From Shigella phage ESh27, in the sequence record ON528737: a stretch of 64,000 bases of DNA; one strand, 5' to 3'. The notes beneath the pieces are model-generated. The model was not told the DNA's origin. It searched no databases and saw nothing but the letters and a program-made list of their open reading frames with translations. Each line of letters starts with the position of its first letter. Position 1 is the stretch's first letter. Positions 4,264 through 56,945 of this stretch are shown here, piece by piece. The translations under genes and the position numbers were made by a program.

Positions 4264-5706
4264 GTGGTAGAAATTATTTTGTCTCATCTCGTATATGACC
4301 AGGCTTATTTTTCTAAGGTCTGGCCTTATATGGATTCTGATTACTTTGAGCGTGGACCGGCAAAAAATGTCTTTAAAATTATAAAGAGCCACGTTAACGA
4401 ATATAATGCAATGCCATCCATCAATGCATTAAAGGTGGCTTTAGATAACAGTTCTTTAACTGAAGCCGAATATAAAGGAACTTCAGACCTAATTGAAAAA
4501 TTGGCTGATACTCCTGAAGACCACGAATGGTTGGTTAAAGAAACTGAGAAATATGTCCAGCAAAAAGCGATGTATAATGCCACGTCCAAAATCATTGAGA
4601 TTCAGACTAATGCCGAACTACCTCCAGAACAACGTAACAAGAAAATGCCTGACGTAGGAGCTATTCCTGATATTATGCGTCAAGCACTTTCAATTTCGTT
4701 TGATAGTTATGTTGGTCACGACTGGATGGAAGACTATGAAGCACGCTGGCTTTCTTATCTAAATAAAGCACGTAAGGTCCCGTTCAAATTAAACATTCTG
4801 AATAAAATCACCAAAGGTGGTGCAGAAACAGGTACACTGAACGTTTTAATGGCTGGTGTTAACGTTGGTAAATCTTTAGGCCTTTGTTCACTTGCCGCAG
4901 ATTATCTTCAAACAGGACATAATGTTCTTTATATTTCCATGGAAATGGCTGAAGAAGTTTGTGCTAAGCGTATAGATGCAAACATGCTTGACGTATCACT
5001 CGATGATATCGATGATGGTAACGTATCTTATGCTGAATATAAAGCCAAGATGGAAAAATGGCGTTCAAAATCCACATTAGGACGTTTAGTAGTCAAACAG
5101 TATCCTACTGGTGGAGCTAATGCTAATACATTCCGTGCATTGCTTAATGAATTGAAACTCAAGAAGAACTTTGTGCCGTCTGTAATTATAGTCGATTACT
5201 TAGGTATTTGTGGGTCTTGTCGTATCAGAGTTTACACCGAAAATAGTTACACATTAGTTAAAGCTATCGCAGAAGAACTTCGTGCATTAGCAGTAGAATC
5301 TGAAACAGTTCTATGGACTGCAGCTCAAGTAGGACGTGCAGCATGGGATGCTTCAGACATGAACATGAGTGATATCGCAGAATCAGCAGGTTTACCAGCA
5401 ACGGCAGATTTCATGTTGGCCGTAATTGAAACTGAAGAACTTGCACAAGCTGAACAACAACTTATCAAACAAATCAAATCACGATACGGTGATAAGAATA
5501 AGTGGAACAAGTTCTTGATGGGTGTACGTAAAGGCAATCAGAAATGGGTTGAGATTGAGCAAGAAGGCATGAACACACCTAACACAGTAAATGAAAACGC
5601 AGGTGCTCAGATGCGTCAGGCAGAGGTGAATCGTACGGAACGCGTAGGTAAAGCCAAAGCAACACGTGCTGACCTAGATAGCTTAGCCAATGAGTTAAAA
5701 TTTTAA
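4264..5706 (+). CDS. 41: gp41 replicative DNA helicase (DnaB-like)
   Basis: 480 aa; Walker A GVNVGKS; N-terminus MVEIILSHL; GTG start; T4 synteny. Confidence 0.9.
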   Translation: MVEIILSHLVYDQAYFSKVWPYMDSDYFERGPAKNVFKIIKSHVNEYNAMPSINALKVALDNSSLTEAEYKGTSDLIEKLADTPEDHEWLVKETEKYVQQKAMYNATSKIIEIQTNAELPPEQRNKKMPDVGAIPDIMRQALSISFDSYVGHDWMEDYEARWLSYLNKARKVPFKLNILNKITKGGAETGTLNVLMAGVNVGKSLGLCSLAADYLQTGHNVLYISMEMAEEVCAKRIDANMLDVSLDDIDDGNVSYAEYKAKMEKWRSKSTLGRLVVKQYPTGGANANTFRALLNELKLKKNFVPSVIIVDYLGICGSCRIRVYTENSYTLVKAIAEELRALAVESETVLWTAAQVGRAAWDASDMNMSDIAESAGLPATADFMLAVIETEELAQAEQQLIKQIKSRYGDKNKWNKFLMGVRKGNQKWVEIEQEGMNTPNTVNENAGAQMRQAEVNRTERVGKAKATRADLDSLANELKF

Positions 5707-7004: not shown

Positions 7005-7373
7005 ATGAAAAAATTAATCGCTTTAGCAATGGTATTTGGATTAACCGGATGTGGTGCTCATGGCTTTATCCCTAATAATGTCGGCCAATTGATTTATAAC
7101 CCGAATGTTAAACAGTACAACCAACCTAAAGTTGAAGTGGAAGACCCGGTTACTGTAGGTAATCGAATGATTCAAGCTGATGCCCATGCTCAACGTTATC
7201 GTGATTCTGATACTGTAGCATTGACAAAAGAACAACGCGTTAAAGAACATTGCTTACAGGCTACCGAAATCGCATTCATTCGCTATGTTGAAACAACTGG
7301 TAAAGAGCCTACCCAGAAACAAATCGCGAATAACTACGTCCAGTGTATTGAACGTTTAAACAAATTTAATTAA
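7005..7373 (+). CDS. putative lipoprotein
   Basis: 122 aa; signal peptide with lipobox LTGC. Confidence 0.55.
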   Translation: MKKLIALAMVFGLTGCGAHGFIPNNVGQLIYNPNVKQYNQPKVEVEDPVTVGNRMIQADAHAQRYRDSDTVALTKEQRVKEHCLQATEIAFIRYVETTGKEPTQKQIANNYVQCIERLNKFN

Positions 7374-15374: not shown

Positions 15375-16684
15375 CATTTGATGATTTGACTGAAGGCCAG
15401 AAAAACGCCTTCAACGTTGTTATGAAAGCTATTAAAGAAAAGAAACATCACGTAACTATTAATGGACCTGCAGGTACAGGTAAAACAACCCTTACTAGAT
15501 TCATCGTTGAAGCCCTTATTTCTTCTGGAGAATCAGGTATTATTTTAGCAGCACCAACACACGCTGCTAAAAAGGTTCTAAGCAAACTTGCTGGACAAGA
15601 AGCATCGACTATTCATAGCATTCTTAAAATCAACCCAACTACATACGAAGAAAACGTATTATTTGAACAGAAAAAGGTTCCCGACTTAGCCTTGTGTCGT
15701 GTACTGTTATTTGATGAAGCGTCAATGTGCGACCGTTCTCTGTTTAAAATAATGTTAGCTAGTATCCCTAAATGGTGTACAGTAATTGGAATTGGTGACC
15801 GATGTCAGATTCGTCCTGTAGACCCAGGCGAATCAACTGCGTATCTAAGTCCTTTCTTCACTCACAAAGACTTCGTGCAATGCAACCTTACAGAAGTTAA
15901 ACGTAGCAATGCACCAATTATTGATGTTGCGACCGATATTCGTAATGGCAAATGGATTTATGATAAAGTAGTTGACGGGCATGGTGTTCATGGATATACA
16001 GACCTTAAATCGTATATGATGAACTATTTTAATGTCGTTAAAACTCCTGAAGACCTTTTCGAAAATCGAATGATGGCATTCACAAATAAGTCGGTGGACA
16101 AGTTAAATTCAATTATTCGCCGAAAACTTCTTGAAACAGAAAAACCATTTATTAAAGATGAAGTCATTGTTCTACAAGAGCCATTTACTAAGACATATAA
16201 GCTAGATGGTAAAAATATGACCGAAATGCTTTTCAATAACGGGCAATTCGTTCGTATTCGAGATGCTGTAGAAACGTCTACATTCGTTAAAGCACGTGGT
16301 GTTTCTGGCGAATATATGATACGATACTGGAATCTTACAGTAGAAACATATGGGGATGATGAAGAATACGTCCGCGAAGATATAAAGGTTATTTCTTCCG
16401 AAGAAGAGCTTTATAAATTCAATTTGTTTTTGGCTAAGACTGCAGAAACATACAAATTCTGGAATAAAGGTGGTAAAGCTCCGTGGAGTGAATTCTGGGA
16501 TGCTAAACGTATGTTCACTAAGGTGAAGGCACTACCAGTATCAACCTTCCATAAGGCTCAGGGTATGTCTGTTGACACGGCCTTTGTTTATACACCGTGT
16601 ATCCATTATGCCGATTCAGAATTAGCTAAACAGTTATTGTATGTCGGCACAACTCGTGGCCGTTTTGACGTCCATTTTATTTGA
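15371..16684 (+). CDS. dda: Dda SF1B DNA helicase
   Basis: 437 aa; N-terminus MTFDDLTEGQKNAF; Walker A GPAGTGKT. Confidence 0.9.
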   Translation: MTFDDLTEGQKNAFNVVMKAIKEKKHHVTINGPAGTGKTTLTRFIVEALISSGESGIILAAPTHAAKKVLSKLAGQEASTIHSILKINPTTYEENVLFEQKKVPDLALCRVLLFDEASMCDRSLFKIMLASIPKWCTVIGIGDRCQIRPVDPGESTAYLSPFFTHKDFVQCNLTEVKRSNAPIIDVATDIRNGKWIYDKVVDGHGVHGYTDLKSYMMNYFNVVKTPEDLFENRMMAFTNKSVDKLNSIIRRKLLETEKPFIKDEVIVLQEPFTKTYKLDGKNMTEMLFNNGQFVRIRDAVETSTFVKARGVSGEYMIRYWNLTVETYGDDEEYVREDIKVISSEEELYKFNLFLAKTAETYKFWNKGGKAPWSEFWDAKRMFTKVKALPVSTFHKAQGMSVDTAFVYTPCIHYADSELAKQLLYVGTTRGRFDVHFI

Positions 16685-16693
16685 GAGAAAATT

Positions 16694-17371
16694 ATGAGCA
16701 CTGATGTTATTATAGATTTTGAAACATTCGGCAATACATCAAAAGCTGCTGTTATTGACCTTGCGGTTATTGCATATAATTCCGACCCTGAAGTTGTTGA
16801 AACATTTGAAGAACTTGTTCAACGAGGTAAGCGAATTAAATTTAATTTAGCTTCTCAGAAAGGGAAGCGAGTTTTCGCTAAATCCACTATGAAATGGTGG
16901 AAAGAACAATCAGCAGAAGCACGTAAAAACCTGGCTCCGTCTGAAGACGATGTCACTACGCTTGAAGGCATTAAAATCTTTTTAGATTATTGTCGAGCTA
17001 ATAAAGTTGACCAATGGAAATCACAGATGTGGTGCCGTGGTATGAGCTTTGACTTCCCGATATTGGTCGATTTGATTCGTGATCTCTATCGTGATGAAGG
17101 TGTTCTTGAACCAGATATTGATACTGATAAATTAGAACCGGTTAAATTCTGGGCTCAACGCGATATTCGTACGGCAATCGAAGCTTACTCGTTGACACGA
17201 GGATTAAGTATGTGTCCATTACCGATGGGTACGCTAAAAGGATTCGTTGCCCATGATAGTATTCATGATTGTGCTAAAGATATTTTGATGTTAAAATATG
17301 CTCAGCGTTATGCGCTTGGTCTTGAAGATGTCCCTGAGAATCCTGACCCGTTAAGTGTAAAACAGCGATAA
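16694..17371 (+). CDS. dexA: DexA 3'-5' exonuclease A
   Basis: 225 aa; DEDD-type IIDFETFG motif; size and synteny with T4 dexA. Confidence 0.8.
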   Translation: MSTDVIIDFETFGNTSKAAVIDLAVIAYNSDPEVVETFEELVQRGKRIKFNLASQKGKRVFAKSTMKWWKEQSAEARKNLAPSEDDVTTLEGIKIFLDYCRANKVDQWKSQMWCRGMSFDFPILVDLIRDLYRDEGVLEPDIDTDKLEPVKFWAQRDIRTAIEAYSLTRGLSMCPLPMGTLKGFVAHDSIHDCAKDILMLKYAQRYALGLEDVPENPDPLSVKQR

Positions 17372-17376
17372 AATCA

Positions 17377-17415
17377 GTTTACAACCAAGGATGGTTGGAG
17401 TATAATCTTTCTATC
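17377..17415 (+). promoter_or_regulatory. early promoter
   Basis: -35 GTTTAC 17377-17382, 18 bp, -10 TATAAT 17401-17406; spacer carries CCAAGGATGGTTGG palindrome. Confidence 0.5.
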
Positions 17416-17437
17416 TTAACCAAACAGGAAAAACATT

Positions 17438-17932
17438 ATGAATATCAATACTACGGCTACTTACATCCTGAAAGACGAAAAACAAATTAACTGGTATGGT
17501 GCTTCAGTGCGAGCTTACGAAAAGTTTTGTGAAATTTTAGGCACCACTCAAGGTAATAGTTTCACTATTGTTAACTTCATCAAACAAGCTGAAGGCCCTT
17601 GGTTATTCTTAGAAATTAAAAATTCATATGGTACAATTTCCACTACCGCCCTTCCAAGCACAGACTTTGAACTGTTGATTGAAGAAGTAGAACCCGTTAA
17701 AGACATCTGTATTGATATGGATATCGCTTGTATGTACGGTACTCTGATTAAGCCTATTGAGCCTACTGATTTGCTGTGTAAATATGTTTCAATTCGACGC
17801 CCGTTCGCAGGTCCAGTAAATGGATGGGTAACTGACCAGTGGATTGAAGACGGTGTTGAACTTCTGAACGTTGTTCATGCAGGTGATTTTAGTGTAGTTC
17901 CACGTAGTGCTGTGGTTAATATCCTTAATTAA
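17438..17932 (+). CDS. hypothetical protein, tandem paralog 1
   Basis: 164 aa; C-terminal NGWVTDQWIEDGVELLNVVHAGDFSVV block shared with the next two ORFs. Confidence 0.5.
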   Translation: MNINTTATYILKDEKQINWYGASVRAYEKFCEILGTTQGNSFTIVNFIKQAEGPWLFLEIKNSYGTISTTALPSTDFELLIEEVEPVKDICIDMDIACMYGTLIKPIEPTDLLCKYVSIRRPFAGPVNGWVTDQWIEDGVELLNVVHAGDFSVVPRSAVVNILN

Positions 17933-17934
17933 TG

Positions 17935-17972
17935 TTGTACATCCAAGGATGGATGGAGTATAATGAATTCAA
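17935..17972 (+). promoter_or_regulatory. early promoter
   Basis: -35 TTGTAC 17935-17940, 18 bp, -10 TATAAT 17959-17964; near-duplicate of the 17377 promoter. Confidence 0.5.
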
Positions 17973-17994
17973 TTTAAACAAAGAGAGAGAAATT

Positions 17995-18480
17995 ATGAAT
18001 CTTGGTATTATTGGTGAAATCGTTCGCGTATCTAACAAATCTCGTTCTAAAGCCGCAGGAAAATTGGTCGAAGTTGTAAGTATTCAACTTAAAGAAGGCG
18101 TTAAAGATGAAGATTCTGAGGTAAAAGTTCGTATTATTCCTAGTTTTGGGACACAGGAAACCAAATTTGCTTATGTTCGTGCAAAGTTCTTGGAAACGCC
18201 TGTGAGTAGTGCTTTTGCTTCAAGAGAAAAAGTTGAATCCACAGAGCATAATGCACAGTTCAAATGGGCCTTGTGTAAAGGTGTTGAATTCCAGACCGAT
18301 AAAGAATTTGACTTCATCGATGAATATGGTTATCCAAGCAAAACTGATACTATGTGTGGCTTCATTAGTGACCAATGGGTTGAAGATGGTGAAAAGTTAT
18401 ACAATATCGTATTCTTAGGTGACTTCCGAGTTGTTAAAGAATCTGAAATCACTCGCTATGTGTCTCCTCGTAAAGCTTAA
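17995..18480 (+). CDS. hypothetical protein, tandem paralog 2
   Basis: 161 aa from ATG 17995; shares SRSKAAGKLVEV and GFISDQWVEDGEKLYNIVF blocks. Confidence 0.5.
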   Translation: MNLGIIGEIVRVSNKSRSKAAGKLVEVVSIQLKEGVKDEDSEVKVRIIPSFGTQETKFAYVRAKFLETPVSSAFASREKVESTEHNAQFKWALCKGVEFQTDKEFDFIDEYGYPSKTDTMCGFISDQWVEDGEKLYNIVFLGDFRVVKESEITRYVSPRKA

Positions 18481-18489
18481 GGAATTATT

Positions 18490-18909
18490 ATGAATATTGC
18501 AAATCTCTCTATTGGTGATTATGTACACGTATCAGATGCTTCTCGCTCTAAAGTTGCCGGGAAGTTGGTTGAAGTTCTTTCTGTAAGTTGTGGACTCTTT
18601 AGTCCACATCAAGTTAAAGTTCGTGATGCTGATGGCAACATTGGCTACGTCTCAAGCCAATTCATTGAACCAGAAGAAAAAGCGTTCAAATGGGGACTAT
18701 GCAGATCAGTTTCTGTTGAAAAAGACCACGAATTCACTATTGCTGCGGCAACCGATGGAACGCCATGGAAAACTAAGCAAATCGCCGGATTTATTAGCGA
18801 CCGTTGGGTAGAAGATGGTGTTAAGCTTTATAACATCGTTTTCGCTGGTCAGTTCATGGTAGTTCCTGAATTCCAAATTAAAAAATATAGCCCGGCTGCT
18901 TTCGCATAA
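18490..18909 (+). CDS. hypothetical protein, tandem paralog 3
   Basis: 139 aa; shares SRSKVAGKLVEV and GFISDRWVEDGVKLYNIVF blocks. Confidence 0.5.
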   Translation: MNIANLSIGDYVHVSDASRSKVAGKLVEVLSVSCGLFSPHQVKVRDADGNIGYVSSQFIEPEEKAFKWGLCRSVSVEKDHEFTIAAATDGTPWKTKQIAGFISDRWVEDGVKLYNIVFAGQFMVVPEFQIKKYSPAAFA

Positions 18910-18913
18910 AGTT

Positions 18914-18965
18914 GTTTACTTCTCCTCTGGTTTTGATATTATAACCATATCAACCAGAGGAGAAT
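18914..18965 (+). promoter_or_regulatory. early promoter inside 12-bp perfect inverted repeat (PeSL-like)
   Basis: -35 GTTTAC 18914-18919, -10 TATTAT 18937-18942; arms TCTCCTCTGGTT 18921-18932 and AACCAGAGGAGA 18952-18963. Confidence 0.5.
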
Positions 18966-18968
18966 AAT

Positions 18969-19217
18969 ATGTTAGTTTACCGCGTAGAACGTAGTTTTTG
19001 TACTCAACGTGAATCATTACCAGGAATTGCTATTGAAGACGGTAAAGCCGTCAGAATTTGGGAAACCTCTTGGAATAAAGAACCTCGTTCGCCATACGGT
19101 TGGTCGGGCACCGACAACTCTGAAGAAACATGGGAGTTCCTTGATAAACATGGAATACTCTCAGGTAATTTCTACCATCACGGCGACAACTATAATGTCC
19201 CTAATCGTCGAAGATAA
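18969..19217 (+). CDS. hypothetical protein
   Basis: 82 aa; SD GAGGAG. Confidence 0.4.
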   Translation: MLVYRVERSFCTQRESLPGIAIEDGKAVRIWETSWNKEPRSPYGWSGTDNSEETWEFLDKHGILSGNFYHHGDNYNVPNRRR

Positions 19218-19482
19218 ACTCCTTGAACAAAATATCTTAAGATACTATAGAATTGAGCACACATTTGAATTGAGTGAAGATTGGGCTCAAGGGTTCTATT
19301 TTGGATTTGAAAGTGTTGACGCGGTTTATGCATGGTTTGATGACCAGGTAGATGTTGAACTCTTGAAAGCTAAAGGATACTACATCGCGGTCTATGAAGC
19401 ACCTGATTTCATCCTCGGAAGTTGTCAATTAGTGTTCAGACGTTCATTGGCAGAACAAGTTGATTTTATTTTGCTAAAATGA
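19195..19482 (+). CDS. hypothetical protein
   Basis: 95 aa from internal ATG of the 19009 ORF; start uncertain. Confidence 0.3.
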   Translation: MSLIVEDKLLEQNILRYYRIEHTFELSEDWAQGFYFGFESVDAVYAWFDDQVDVELLKAKGYYIAVYEAPDFILGSCQLVFRRSLAEQVDFILLK

Positions 19483-19539
19483 TGTACAACAACTATGGTC
19501 TATGATACTATAGACCTATCAAAACAAGAGGAGAATATT

Positions 19540-19767
19540 ATGAAACGTCAAATCATTAAAAACGTAACTACTGATTCAAACATCGATGAGTTTGAAGATG
19601 TTCTGTTTAATCCTGATTTAGTTGTTGTACAGAAAAACTGGACTGAATTTTTATGCTACACTGAAGTGGTTTACGTTTACGAAAAACTCGGTGATGAAAT
19701 GCCTATCTATGGTATCTTCCGTGAAATCACTGAAAATGGTACAACTTATTGGAAGGAAACTTACTAA
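19540..19767 (+). CDS. hypothetical protein
   Basis: 75 aa from ATG 19540 with SD AAGAGGAGAA. Confidence 0.45.
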
Positions 19768-20177
19768 TGGCTAATAAATTCCGCGTTAACTCATGGTACC
19801 AATTTAAAGATAAACGTGCCCAAGAAGAGTTTATTAAAAACCACACTGATAATGGGATTTATGCACGACGTCTTGGCATGGAACCATTTAAAGTATTAGA
19901 TGTTGACCATCTTGGACGACCTACTAAAATTGTGACATCTACTGGCATGGTTGGATACGCAACTGGTGGTGATATTCTTGATGAAAACTTTATCTGGCTC
20001 TCTACTAGTGAAGCAGAGTTTTTTGATGAAGTTGGAAATCCATATCAAGCGTCTGAAGAGCAAGACTCTGGAGAACTTGATGAATTGTCCGAATTTCCGG
20101 TGATGACGATTACTATCGAAAATAACGACCAGGCATGGTCTTTGTATCAAATGTTGAAAACACATTTTAAGGAATAA
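19767..20177 (+). CDS. hypothetical acidic protein
   Basis: 136 aa from ATG 19767. Confidence 0.5.
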
Positions 20178-20179
20178 TA

Positions 20180-20359
20180 ATGCCGTTATACGACTATAAA
20201 TGTCAATCTGAAGATTGTGGTCATGAATATGAAAAAATTAAAAGGATTTCTGAACGAGAAAACGATGTTTGCCCTGAATGTCATCGTCTGTCTACTCGTC
20301 GGGTTTCTGCTCCTAAACATGTGAACGGTGGTTTTTACGACTTACTTAAGAAGGGATAA
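20180..20359 (+). CDS. zinc-ribbon small protein
   Basis: 59 aa, below the ORF-track cutoff; two CxxC pairs (CQSEDC...CPEC). Confidence 0.5.
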   Translation: MPLYDYKCQSEDCGHEYEKIKRISERENDVCPECHRLSTRRVSAPKHVNGGFYDLLKKG

Positions 20360-20361
20360 TT

Positions 20362-20787
20362 ATGGCTTTTAAAGGTTTTGAAATTGGCAAGAAATACCGT
20401 ATTATCAAAGGTCAAGAAGATAATTTCTTGAGAATTCTTAATACGACTGGTAAACGTCTTAATACTAATCTGCATACTACTTTATTGTCCAAAGATTTTA
20501 TTGTGGAAGAGATGATTGGTTACGGCGTTTCGGTTATTGCTGTAGAAGCCGTAGGCGATTATGGCCGAACTATTCATAGTATGCAAGGTGATATTCTGCT
20601 TTATGGTGCAGAATTTAAATTCTTTGAAGAAGTTTCGGAACCAGATACAGCTGTCGATTTCAAAAAAGGCTCTATAGAATTTGTTGATGGTTCGGTGATC
20701 GTATCAGGCGATGTGGTCATTACAGTTAAAAGTGAACAAGGGCGTTTGGCTGCAATTGATGCACTTCAGAAAATTAAATTTAAATAA
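20362..20787 (+). CDS. hypothetical protein
   Basis: 141 aa; followed by GC hairpin + T-run terminator. Confidence 0.5.
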   Translation: MAFKGFEIGKKYRIIKGQEDNFLRILNTTGKRLNTNLHTTLLSKDFIVEEMIGYGVSVIAVEAVGDYGRTIHSMQGDILLYGAEFKFFEEVSEPDTAVDFKKGSIEFVDGSVIVSGDVVITVKSEQGRLAAIDALQKIKFK

Positions 20788-20805
20788 GGGCTTCGGCCCT
20801 TTTTG
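20788..20805 (+). terminator. intrinsic terminator
   Basis: GGGC-TTCG-GCCC hairpin + TTTTTG. Confidence 0.6.
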
Positions 20806-20850
20806 CTTTAGATTTCGGATGATAGAATACCTTCATAACGAGGAGACAAC

Positions 20851-22668
20851 ATGATTAAAAATGAAATTAAGGTACTGTCAGATGTAGAACATATTAAGAA
20901 ACGTAGTGGTATGTATATTGGTTCTTCTGCTAAAGAAGCACATGAACGTTTTTTGTTTGGTAAATATCAACAAGTTGAATATGTTCCTGGTCTGGTTAAA
21001 TTAATCGATGAGATTATTGACAACTCGGTTGATGAAGCTATTCGTACATCATTTAAGTTTGCAAATAAAATTGATGTGCAAATTAAAAATAATCAAGTTT
21101 CGGTGGAAGATAACGGACGTGGTATTCCTCAAGGTTTAGTTACCGACCAAACGGGTGAACAAATTCCTGGGCCTGTTGCAGCCTGGACTATTCCAAAAGC
21201 CGGTGGTAACTTTGGTGATGACTCTGAACGTAAGACTGGTGGTATGAACGGCGTCGGGAGTAGTTTAACTAATATCTTCTCTACGTTGTTTACAGGCATA
21301 ACGTCAGATGGCGAAAATGAAATCACTGTTAACTGTTCAAACGGGATGGAAAACAAATCATGGTCTTCTAAGAAATCTAAAGGTAAAGGCACTAAAGTAA
21401 TCTTCACTCCTGATTTCACTTCATTTGAAGAGCATAATTTATCTCAAATTTATTTAGATATTACTTTAGACCGACTTCAAACATTGGCAGTCGTTTATCC
21501 TGATATCAAGTTCACATTTAACGGTAAAAAGGTTGATGGTAATTTTAAACGATTTGCTAAACAATTTGGCGAAGATAATATCATTCAAGAAAATGATAAA
21601 GTCTCTATAGCATTCACAACATCACCAGATGGCTTCCGTCATTTAACTTATGTGAATAACATCCATACTAAAAATGGTGGACATCATGTTGAATGTGTAA
21701 TGGACGATATCTGCGAACATCTTTTGCCAGGTATTAAAAAGAAATATAAGGGTATTGAAGTCACTAAAGCTCGTGTTAAAGAATGCCTCACAATGTTGAT
21801 GTTTATTAGAGACATGAGTAACATGCGTTTTGATTCTCAGACTAAAGAACGTTTAACGTCAACATATGGTGATATTCGTAATCATATCCAATTAGATGCT
21901 AAGAAAATTGCTCAGGCACTTCTTAAAAACGAAGCCTTGATTATGCCTATTGTTGAAGCAGCATTAGCTCGTAAATTGGCAGCAGAAAAGGCTGCAGAAA
22001 CTAAAGCAGCTAAAAAGGCCACTAAAGCTAAGGTTCATAAGCATATTAAAGCTAACCAATGCGGTAAAGATGCAGATACGACATTGTTTTTAACAGAAGG
22101 TGATTCGGCAATTGGATATCTCATTGATGTTCGTGACCGTGAACTACATGGCGGATTCCCATTACGTGGTAAGGTGATGAATAGCTGGGGTATGTCATAT
22201 GCTGATATGATGAAGAACAAAGAGCTCTTTGATATCTGTGCTATCACAGGTCTTATTCTTGGTGAAAAAGCAGAGAATACGAACTATCGTAATATTGCAA
22301 TTATGACCGATGCCGATCATGACGGTCTTGGAAGTATCTATCCGGCTTTGCTTGCTTTCTTTAGTAATTGGCCTGAATTGTTTGAACAAGGACGTATTCG
22401 CTTTGTTAAAACGCCTGTAATTATTGCACAAATTGGCAAAACACAAAAATGGTTTTATACTGTAGCTGAGTATGAAGAAGCTAAAGATACACTGCCTAAG
22501 CATAGTATTCGATACATCAAGGGATTAGGCTCCCTTGAAAAGTCAGAATATCGTGAAATGATTCAGAACCCTGTGTACGACGTAGTTAAACTTCCTGAAA
22601 ATTGGAAAGAACTCTTTGAAATGTTGATGGGTGATGATTCAGAACTTCGTAAAGAATGGATGTCCTAA
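20851..22668 (+). CDS. 39: DNA topoisomerase II large subunit (gp39 with gp60 fused)
   Basis: 605 aa continuous; GHKL ATPase motif EDNGRGIP, TOPRIM LTEGDSA; covers both 39 and 60 of T4 in one frame. Confidence 0.9.
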   Translation: MIKNEIKVLSDVEHIKKRSGMYIGSSAKEAHERFLFGKYQQVEYVPGLVKLIDEIIDNSVDEAIRTSFKFANKIDVQIKNNQVSVEDNGRGIPQGLVTDQTGEQIPGPVAAWTIPKAGGNFGDDSERKTGGMNGVGSSLTNIFSTLFTGITSDGENEITVNCSNGMENKSWSSKKSKGKGTKVIFTPDFTSFEEHNLSQIYLDITLDRLQTLAVVYPDIKFTFNGKKVDGNFKRFAKQFGEDNIIQENDKVSIAFTTSPDGFRHLTYVNNIHTKNGGHHVECVMDDICEHLLPGIKKKYKGIEVTKARVKECLTMLMFIRDMSNMRFDSQTKERLTSTYGDIRNHIQLDAKKIAQALLKNEALIMPIVEAALARKLAAEKAAETKAAKKATKAKVHKHIKANQCGKDADTTLFLTEGDSAIGYLIDVRDRELHGGFPLRGKVMNSWGMSYADMMKNKELFDICAITGLILGEKAENTNYRNIAIMTDADHDGLGSIYPALLAFFSNWPELFEQGRIRFVKTPVIIAQIGKTQKWFYTVAEYEEAKDTLPKHSIRYIKGLGSLEKSEYREMIQNPVYDVVKLPENWKELFEMLMGDDSELRKEWMS

Positions 22669-28881: not shown

Positions 28882-28920
28882 TTGTACAAACTCTTGAGAG
28901 CAGAGTATAATGCTCTCATG
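28882..28920 (+). promoter_or_regulatory. early promoter within inverted repeat
   Basis: -35 TTGTAC 28882-28887, 18 bp, -10 TATAAT 28906-28911 flanked by GAGAGCA/TGCTCTC. Confidence 0.5.
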
Positions 28921-56691: not shown

Positions 56692-56906
56692 CTAAAGAAC
56701 AGCATGAATACATTAAAGGGCTTATCTATGAATCTGAAATGGCGGCTATGATTTATGGCCGTCTGATTCAACGATTAGAATCTTTGCCTCCGACTAATGA
56801 CCGCTTGTTAGTTCAGTCTCGTGCTAATCTGAAAAATGAATATCAGAACAAGTGGGCAGTAGCGACTAAAGCTCTTCATGAGTATATCGAATCTTTAGTA
56901 AAATAG
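56682..56906 (+). CDS. hypothetical protein
   Basis: 74 aa. Confidence 0.4.
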   Translation: MPMTKEQHEYIKGLIYESEMAAMIYGRLIQRLESLPPTNDRLLVQSRANLKNEYQNKWAVATKALHEYIESLVK

Positions 56907-56945
56907 TTTACAAACTCTCGGGAGCAGAGTATAATGCTCCTATGG
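56906..56945 (+). promoter_or_regulatory. early promoter within inverted repeat
   Basis: -35 GTTTAC 56906-56911, 18 bp, -10 TATAAT 56930-56935 flanked by GGAGCA/TGCTCC; near-copy of the 28882 element. Confidence 0.5.

Follow-up and report, generated by a model that had tools for sequence, protein, structure and literature searches.

The DNA analysed here is a stretch of 64,000 nucleotides (nt) from Shigella phage ESh27 (sequence record ON528737), referred to as the window in the following. Mosigvirus phiC120 shares 97.7% DNA identity with it, and by its sequence the window comes from a Mosigvirus, i.e. from an RB69-like T-even phage. Downstream of dexA it contains three consecutive small open reading frames (ORFs), which a preliminary description had recognized as paralogs and ascribed to a recent tandem duplication in an arms race with the host. 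Judged by their sequence relationships, the three ORFs are motB.1, motB and a second copy of motB, and they constitute an early-gene cluster in the dispensable region between dexA and gene 39. The cluster consists of the following features:

17377-17406, plus strand: P1, predicted early sigma-70-type promoter for ORF1 (-35 box GTTTAC, 18-nt spacer, -10 box TATAAT)
17438-17932, plus strand: ORF1, putative motB.1 in its full-length form, 164 amino acids (aa), with a predicted N-terminal small beta-barrel of the LSm/SH3-like class (residues ~1-84) and a MotB-type C-terminal domain (residues ~85-164, nt 17690-17929)
17935-17964, plus strand: P2, predicted early promoter for ORF2 and ORF3 (-35 box TTGTAC, -10 box TATAAT)
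17995-18480, plus strand: ORF2, putative motB ortholog, 161 aa, with an N-terminal barrel of KOW-like type (residues 1-68, nt 17995-18198), a disordered linker (residues 70-86) and the C-terminal domain (residues 88-161, nt 18256-18477)
18490-18909, plus strand: ORF3, putative second motB copy of the RB69p010 type, 139 aa, with a KOW-like N-terminal domain, a linker that is shorter than in ORF2, and the C-terminal domain

ORF1 is 38% identical to MotB.1 of T4 (NP_049627) along the whole length (E 2e-26) and matches PHROG 2333, the MotB.1 family, over residues 1-164 (E 1.8e-82), which is a full-length match. Both proteins have the C-terminal domain in common and probably also the class of the N-terminal barrel. 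However, ORF1 differs from the T4 protein in its length of 164 aa, in its intact C-terminal domain and in an additional segment of approximately 21 residues (DMDIACMYGTLIKP...). ORF2 is 57% identical to T4 MotB (NP_049626) and matches PHROG 1671 with an E-value of 4.6e-70. It is the positional ortholog of T4 MotB, belongs to the same length class, exhibits the same two-domain layout and also has an early promoter directly upstream. The architecture of MotB proper, a KOW-like N-terminal domain with the sequence SRSKAAGK followed by the C-terminal domain, is present over the whole model in ORF2 (positions 5-157 of 162 in the Pfam profile PF17613, 5-166 of 166 in PHROG 1671) and likewise in ORF3 (2-166 of 166 in PHROG 1671), which shares it with T4 MotB at 38% identity. 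ORF1 does not possess this architecture; it matches only the C-terminal part of the Pfam profile (78-153) and is a member of PHROG 2333. ORF3 shares 94% identity with RB69p010 and 83% with RB3_010 from a Tequatrovirus. T4 itself, unlike the window, has no second motB copy.

The gene order dda-dexA-[three genes]-motB.2-cef-goF-39.2-39 is common to the window and phiC120, with a 39.1-like gene between 39.2 and gene 39. ORF2 thus occupies the position of MotB in the early region from dexA to cef, goF and gene 39, and the order agrees with that of phiC120, RB69, RB3 and T4. The T4 locus differs in that motB.2 lies between dexA and motB.1; it also precedes motB.1 in RB3, and it follows copy 2 in Mosigvirus. 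With RB69, the window has the genus, the gene order and the promoter pair in common, the RB69 counterparts being p013 (motB.1), p012 (a 29-aa peptide), p011 (motB) and p010 (MotB-like). The differences concern motB.1, which is in two pieces in RB69 but a single intact ORF in the window, and the N-terminal domain (head) of MotB, since that of RB69 is not the T4-like one found in the window.

The program-made list of ORFs gave ORF2 as 17932-18480, but translation almost certainly begins with the ATG at 17995, as can be read from the alignment with the MotB starts of T4 and RB69 (MI.NIGE / MITIGE), with which this position agrees. The upstream ATGs of ORF2 precede the -10 box of P2 or fall within it and would therefore be absent from P2 transcripts. 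In the RefSeq record of phiC120 (NC_055718.1, locus 1853-2380), MotB is annotated with 175 aa, starting at an upstream ATG within the predicted -10 region (window 17953-17994). As the upstream ATGs cannot be part of P2 transcripts, the length of 175 aa annotated for some relatives is probably excessive.

The three ORFs share a C-terminal module and ORF2 and ORF3 also an N-terminal block, as claimed in the preliminary description, whose coordinates and motifs we could confirm. In BLASTP comparisons, ORF2 and ORF3 align from end to end with 44% identity over 154 columns (E 3e-31), while the C-terminal block of ORF1 has 16 of 36 residues in common with ORF2 (E 3e-10) and 16 of 29 with ORF3 (E 2e-10). 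The shared blocks are hence significant in the pairwise alignments. All three proteins exceed the curated gathering score of 25 bits of Pfam PF17613 (motB), with 35.1 bits for ORF1, 179.8 for ORF2 and 83.5 for ORF3. Comparing profiles built from homologs, the C-terminal domains of MotB and MotB.1 align over 55 columns with a probability of 99.6% (E 1e-23). The core of this domain in the three proteins can be written as G[FW][IV][ST]D[QR]W[IV]EDG..L.N[IV]V..G.F.VV. The N-terminal block of ORF2 and ORF3 (VS..SRSK.AGKLVEV) is visible even at the DNA level as repeat D1 (67 nt at 72% identity). In contrast, hhalign detected no relation between the N-terminal domains of the ORF1 type and the ORF2 type, nor any internal duplication between the N- and C-terminal domains of MotB or of MotB.1 (probabilities ≤ 1.3%). 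A six-frame profile search of the 64-kb window revealed no additional copies of either the C-terminal or the N-terminal domains.

Next to the coding sequences, the promoter elements near 17377 and 17935 had been described as duplicated, and this holds true. P1 has no mismatch to GTTTAC-N18-TATAAT and agrees with the sigma-70 consensus in 11 of 12 positions (consensus scans). The repeated promoter-leader units comprise 17377-17443 (first copy with P1, GTTTACAACCAAGGATGGTTGGAGTATAAT at 17377) and 17935-18000 (second copy with P2, TTGTACATCCAAGGATGGATGGAGTATAAT at 17935). Within a core of 27 nt, 25 positions are identical, and this core, with the two differing positions set to N, has no matches in the 64 kb other than those at 17380 and 17938, and none in shuffled sequences. 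The likeness extends through the leader to the ATGAAT start (repeat D2, 48 nt at 77%; repeat D6, 16 nt at 81%). No other promoter of the window is as similar to P1 or P2 as these two are to each other, and the pair is also present in RB69, whereas the motB promoter of T4 represents a different class of cassette. A consensus scan of the plus strand from 18300 to 18490 yielded no promoter-like site, i.e. none for ORF3 itself; ORF3, which begins after a gap of 9 nt, is presumably co-transcribed with ORF2 from P2.

The origin of this promoter pair can be explained in two ways. Its conservation in RB69 fits an ancestral duplication of promoter plus gene. An equally good explanation of the likeness is the spread of promoter cassettes according to the PeSL model (Arbiol et al. 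2010, PMC2839356; Comeau et al. 2014, PMC4122927), as mobile promoter cassettes have been described for T4-type phages in these two studies. As with the PeSL cassettes, the early-promoter units found here are near-identical and lie next to small accessory genes, in a part of the genome that is hyperplastic. However, the repeated promoter P1/P2 has no convincing stem-loop, and its resemblance to PeSL cassettes is one of sequence patterns. Two further near-identical early promoters are located at unrelated sites of the window, at 28882-28911 (TTGTACAAACTCTTGAGAGCAGAGTATAAT) and 56906-56935 (GTTTACAAACTCTCGGGAGCAGAGTATAAT). Each carries a short stem-loop across the -10 box and both resemble the T4 motB promoter (GTTTACAAACTCTTGGGACCAGAGTATAAT), so that they look like mobile promoter cassettes of the PeSL type. 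Since near-identical early-promoter cassettes recur at unrelated sites such as these, promoter likeness alone is no proof of a gene duplication.

The relationship of the genes themselves indicates duplications, but not recent ones. Even in the best-conserved core, the DNA of the copies is only 58-70% identical. The 765 phage records with a match to ORF3 comprise 206 with at least 80% identity and 558 with less than 60% (MotB only), and a single one in between. Copy 2 is thus present in about a quarter of the records and forms a discrete lineage. The Tequatrovirus RB3 possesses the same tandem of motB and copy 2 with the same 9-nt gap. Because of the low identity between the copies, the existence of orthologs in another genus and the bimodal distribution of identities, the duplication is not recent.

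Selection was assessed by the ratio of nonsynonymous to synonymous substitutions (dN/dS), calculated pairwise and gene-wide according to Nei-Gojobori with a custom script. The values are 0.04-0.28 for motB.1, 0.21-0.34 for motB and 0.09-0.17 for copy 2, compared to 0.03-0.12 for dexA. All three genes are under purifying selection, which is somewhat more relaxed than for dexA. On this gene-wide scale, the values lend no support to the claim of an arms-race locus, and of the tandem duplication and divergence proposed in the preliminary description, the duplication origin of the paralogs can be maintained while the attribute "recent" cannot. To be sure, a recent duplication followed by fast divergence in an arms race with the host would account for tandem copies with a near-identical promoter-leader unit, and also for the plasticity of the locus, which is a plastic, accessory early-gene region: next to the patchy occurrence of copy 2 and the shifting position of motB.2, there is an 11-base pair (bp) deletion in motB.2 of the window, and in the phage vB-Eco-KMB38 (KMB38; OR525701.1, locus 2089-2367), a single TGG-to-TAG change creates an amber codon that cuts copy 2, a gene otherwise almost identical to that of the window, to 92 aa, with loss of the C-terminal core. 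Nevertheless, paralogs with at most 70% DNA identity in the best core and 44% protein identity between ORF2 and ORF3, orthologs of each paralog in another genus, an identity distribution with almost nothing between its two modes, and gene-wide dN/dS values of 0.04-0.34 make such a scenario very unlikely.

Knock-outs in relatives could also be taken to mean that ORF1, ORF3 or both are decaying copies without function. The motB.1 gene of RB69 is split by two 1-nt insertions, the ORF3 counterpart of KMB38 carries the amber codon, and a T4 mutant deleted for motB.1 has no laboratory phenotype (PMC12152347). However, ORF1 and ORF3 are both intact in the window and their dN/dS ratios are low. Moreover, ORF3-type proteins keep a length of exactly 139 aa across 81-100% identity, and ORF1 has matches with at least 90% identity in 149 records; among the matches listed, all span 164 aa in one piece. 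We therefore regard decay as extremely improbable. Taken as a whole, the explanation that we favor with good confidence is that old duplications, together with an exchange of domains, gave rise to the family before the split of Mosigvirus and Tequatrovirus, and that the family is now subject to purifying selection, presence/absence variation and occasional knock-outs.

The domain exchange becomes evident from the architecture of the family. An AlphaFold2 model of ORF2, based on an alignment of 66 sequences, shows a two-domain protein (mean predicted local distance difference test score, pLDDT, of 79.3) with an N-terminal barrel (residues 1-67 in the model), a disordered linker and a C-terminal domain of five strands and no helix (pLDDT ~92). 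Of 278 collected proteins with the C-terminal domain, 155 have an N-terminal domain of the KOW type and 114 one of the LSm type, either single or doubled, and there are three singletons. We had also considered a larger number of N-terminal head types, but clustering collapses them to the two classes plus the three singletons. The family therefore combines one constant C-terminal domain of ~75 aa, its most conserved part, with one of two unrelated N-terminal barrels, the KOW-like one of ORF2 and ORF3 or the LSm/SH3-like one of ORF1. Among 1.84 billion representative proteins, the profile of the C-terminal domain finds only 28 clusters. A structure search of viral models detected the two-domain layout in distant T4-like phages including Potts1, phiR1-RT, CC31 and PS2 at 18-23% identity, and the ORF2 sequence has no match to any PDB chain even at an E-value of 10.

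MotB of the window (17995-18480) is a clear example of such an exchange. Its N-terminal domain is 76% identical to that of T4 and 62% to that of RB69, whereas its C-terminal domain is 96% identical to that of RB69 and 49% to that of T4; the flanking genes are 94-99% identical to RB69. By these identities, the protein is a domain mosaic with a T4-like head and an RB69-like tail. MotB.1-type C-terminal domains with 74-88% identity are furthermore found behind N-terminal regions without detectable similarity to that of ORF1, including KOW-like ones (P0058, P0064). Both observations argue for recurrent recombination of heads and tails within the family. A separate observation concerns the motif DMDIACMYGTL(I/V)KP, which in ORF1 occupies residues 93-105 (17714-17752), directly before the strand PTDLLCK. 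In 180-aa proteins of the MotB.1 class (P0029, P0030, P0036, P0044), it is N-terminal, with a whole domain inserted before PTDLLCK, and T4-type MotB.1 proteins do not possess it. The differing position of the motif points to domains having been inserted or deleted in members of the family.

The comparison with T4 also bears on the T4 reference sequence itself. MotB.1 of the T4 reference (NC_000866.4 / AF158101.6) has 119 aa and ends with ...GWVTDQWIGRWR, while the remainder of the conserved domain (EDGVELLNVVHAGEYSVVPRSAVVAILN, 28 codons) is intact in the next frame. Compared to MT984581.1, the reference contains one extra G inside the C-terminal motif (ATTGGAAG vs ATTGAAG, ~7304-7305) and is otherwise identical over 508 nt. 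An uninterrupted MotB.1 of 143 aa with 100% identity is encoded in 11 other T4 records as well as in RB55 and RB59 (13 in total), and the match is split only in the two reference records; in a protein collection, the 143-aa form is seen on 256 contigs. The 119-aa form of the reference is thus due to one extra G that is absent from 13 other T4-type records, and the natural MotB.1 of T4, to judge from these records, has 143 aa with a complete MotB-type C-terminal domain. A similar case is RB69 (NC_004928.1, locus 4377-4873, minus strand), where motB.1 (132 aa, RB69p013) and the 29-aa RB69p012 are two pieces of one ORF, separated by two single-T insertions relative to the window (CCGTTTCGCAGG and GACGGTTGTTGAAC). 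In this alignment, RB69p012, which Patterson-West et al. 2021 termed a "Category 3 peptide", appears as the frameshifted tail of motB.1. The extra bases may have arisen by mutation in the strains or be errors of sequencing. The constructs of Kim et al. 2025 (PMC12152347) were based on NC_000866.4, and the mass of 13.8 kDa quoted there is the one computed for the 119-aa form.

Concerning the function, the early protein MotB of T4 binds DNA non-specifically, whether the DNA is modified or not. H-NS and StpA co-purify with MotB, its overproduction is toxic, and it doubles the burst size (PMC6070864). It also alters the H-NS footprint, and genes of the H-NS regulon are up-regulated (PMC7827196). 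We consider it probable that the three genes are a cluster of old two-domain barrel paralogs with a function like that of T4 MotB. According to their consensus matches, the two near-identical early promoters would drive ORF1 and the pair of ORF2 and ORF3 immediately after infection. By orthology to T4 MotB, ORF2 would bind DNA tightly and non-specifically and shift the seating of H-NS and StpA on the DNA, whereupon the phage yield would rise. ORF3 would most likely have a closely similar activity with a shifted preference. In our own interpretation of the sequences, the KOW-like head with its SRSKAAGK loop would be the main nucleic-acid contact, while the C-terminal domain might serve all three proteins as a module for self-association or for binding a partner, and thereby direct them to one target. 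ORF1 may modulate MotB or compete with it via this shared domain. The SRSKAAGK loop of the head is basic and nearly invariant, and the net charge of the head is +3 in ORF2 (isoelectric point, pI, 9.5) and 0 in ORF3. The C-terminal domain, on the other hand, has an invariant acidic D.W.EDG motif and net charges of -5, -4 and +2 in the three copies, and ORF1 is acidic as a whole protein (pI 4.5). Because of this contrast between a basic head and a largely acidic C-terminal domain, we favor the former as the DNA contact and the latter as the partner module.

Several points weigh against this interpretation. ORF2 has a net charge of -2 (pI 5.6) compared to +6 (pI 9.2) for T4 MotB, so that its affinity for DNA may differ from that of T4 MotB. 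The model of ORF1 is weak in the C-terminal domain (pLDDT 46-66), and the promoters and the co-transcription are consensus matches. The biochemistry is that of T4 MotB, from which the putative functions of ORF2 and ORF3 are assigned by orthology. The lack of a phenotype of the T4 motB.1 deletion, already mentioned above, belongs to these points as well. Finally, according to a proposal by Patterson-West et al. 2021 (PMC7827196), it is the C-terminal domain that binds DNA, by means of an OB-fold. All three proteins might accordingly bind nucleic acid via a C-terminal OB-fold, with the N-terminal domains only tuning the specificity (KOW for DNA, LSm-like for RNA). HHpred assigned the C-terminal domain of T4 MotB to the cold-shock/eIF5A OB family (PMC7827196, section 3.1), and the strong conservation of this domain points in the same direction. 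Its five strands without a helix, its net charges and the acidity of MotB.1 as a whole speak against it, and we consider this possibility unlikely, though worth keeping in mind.

Somewhat more doubtful still is the idea that the C-terminal domain is, instead of an OB-fold for DNA binding, a Tudor/SH3-like association module, by which MotB, copy 2 and MotB.1 form homo- and hetero-oligomers or dock on one host target, e.g. H-NS/StpA. If this were true, the phage would build a small combinatorial set of proteins for nucleoid remodelling, in which the constant domain is joined to interchangeable heads that bind DNA (KOW) or RNA (LSm-like), and the published experiments on MotB.1 with the 119-aa T4 form, which is devoid of most of the C-terminal domain, would have missed its function. 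It is also conceivable, but quite improbable, that the barrels dock on the host transcription machinery, as do the Tudor-like domains of CarD, Mfd and UvrD and the KOW domain of NusG, which would make the proteins true "modifiers of transcription". Compared to the tandem barrels of the Tudor/chromo/KOW (SH3-like) type, such as the tandem Tudor of 53BP1, the KOW repeats of Spt5 and the C-terminal domain of NusG, the sequence identity is only 6-18%. Such matches are to be expected among small barrels in general and give no hint of shared ancestry or of the same ligands.

The observation of three related genes is therefore correct and statistically solid, whereas the evidence does not support a recent duplication in an arms race. 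The cluster as such brings little new, since its paralogy has already been published and is a known feature of T-even phages. Patterson-West et al. 2021 described that MotB and MotB.1 have a conserved C-terminal domain and different N-terminal domains, that one gene may stem from duplication of the other, and that RB69 has two copies of motB, one motB.1 and the 29-aa peptide, several phages having more than one copy (PMC7827196). Kim et al. 2025 identified the N-terminal domain of MotB.1 as an LSm-like barrel that is common to GoF and Frd.2 (PMC12152347). Of use to those working on T4 are the correction of the MotB.1 reference from 119 to 143 aa, the re-identification of the 29-aa peptide of RB69 as the tail of motB.1, and the MotB mosaics with interchangeable N-terminal heads, which provide a testable hypothesis on the roles of the domains.

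The cluster is bordered by the following features:

16694-17371: dexA, the upstream neighbor of ORF1
18914-18964, plus strand: boundary element toward motB.2, an early-promoter-like GTTTAC-N17-TATTAT (18914-18942) overlapping a perfect 13-bp hairpin (18920-18932 / 18952-18964, inverted repeat I6)
18969-19482, plus strand: motB.2, disrupted by the 11-bp deletion between 19209 and 19210, so that pieces of 82 and 157 aa remain (as seen on alignment to phiC120, RB69 and KMB38)

The arms of the boundary hairpin are TTCTCCTCTGGTT and AACCAGAGGAGAA, and the Shine-Dalgarno sequence of motB.2 lies inside the 3' arm. The ribosome-binding site of motB.2 could thus be hidden on read-through transcripts, while transcripts starting from the site at 18914-18942 could not form the stem. 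Like the promoters at 28882 and 56906, this combination of a promoter and a perfect stem resembles the PeSL cassettes. An Rfam scan of 16600-20900 with a permissive E-value gave only a chance match to Y_RNA below the threshold.

We also considered motB.2 (ORF4) as a fourth paralog, but this was ruled out, as BLASTP, Pfam, PHROGs and the profile of the C-terminal domain revealed no similarity. We could find no basis for the label "transcriptional regulator" that motB.2 bears in some records. The bases missing from motB.2 in the window read CTACTGTAAAT in phiC120 and CTACAGTAAAT in RB69 and KMB38. The deletion leaves an N-terminal fragment of 82 aa and an out-of-frame C-terminal part. Since it lies outside any homopolymer, motB.2 of the window is probably a real pseudogene.

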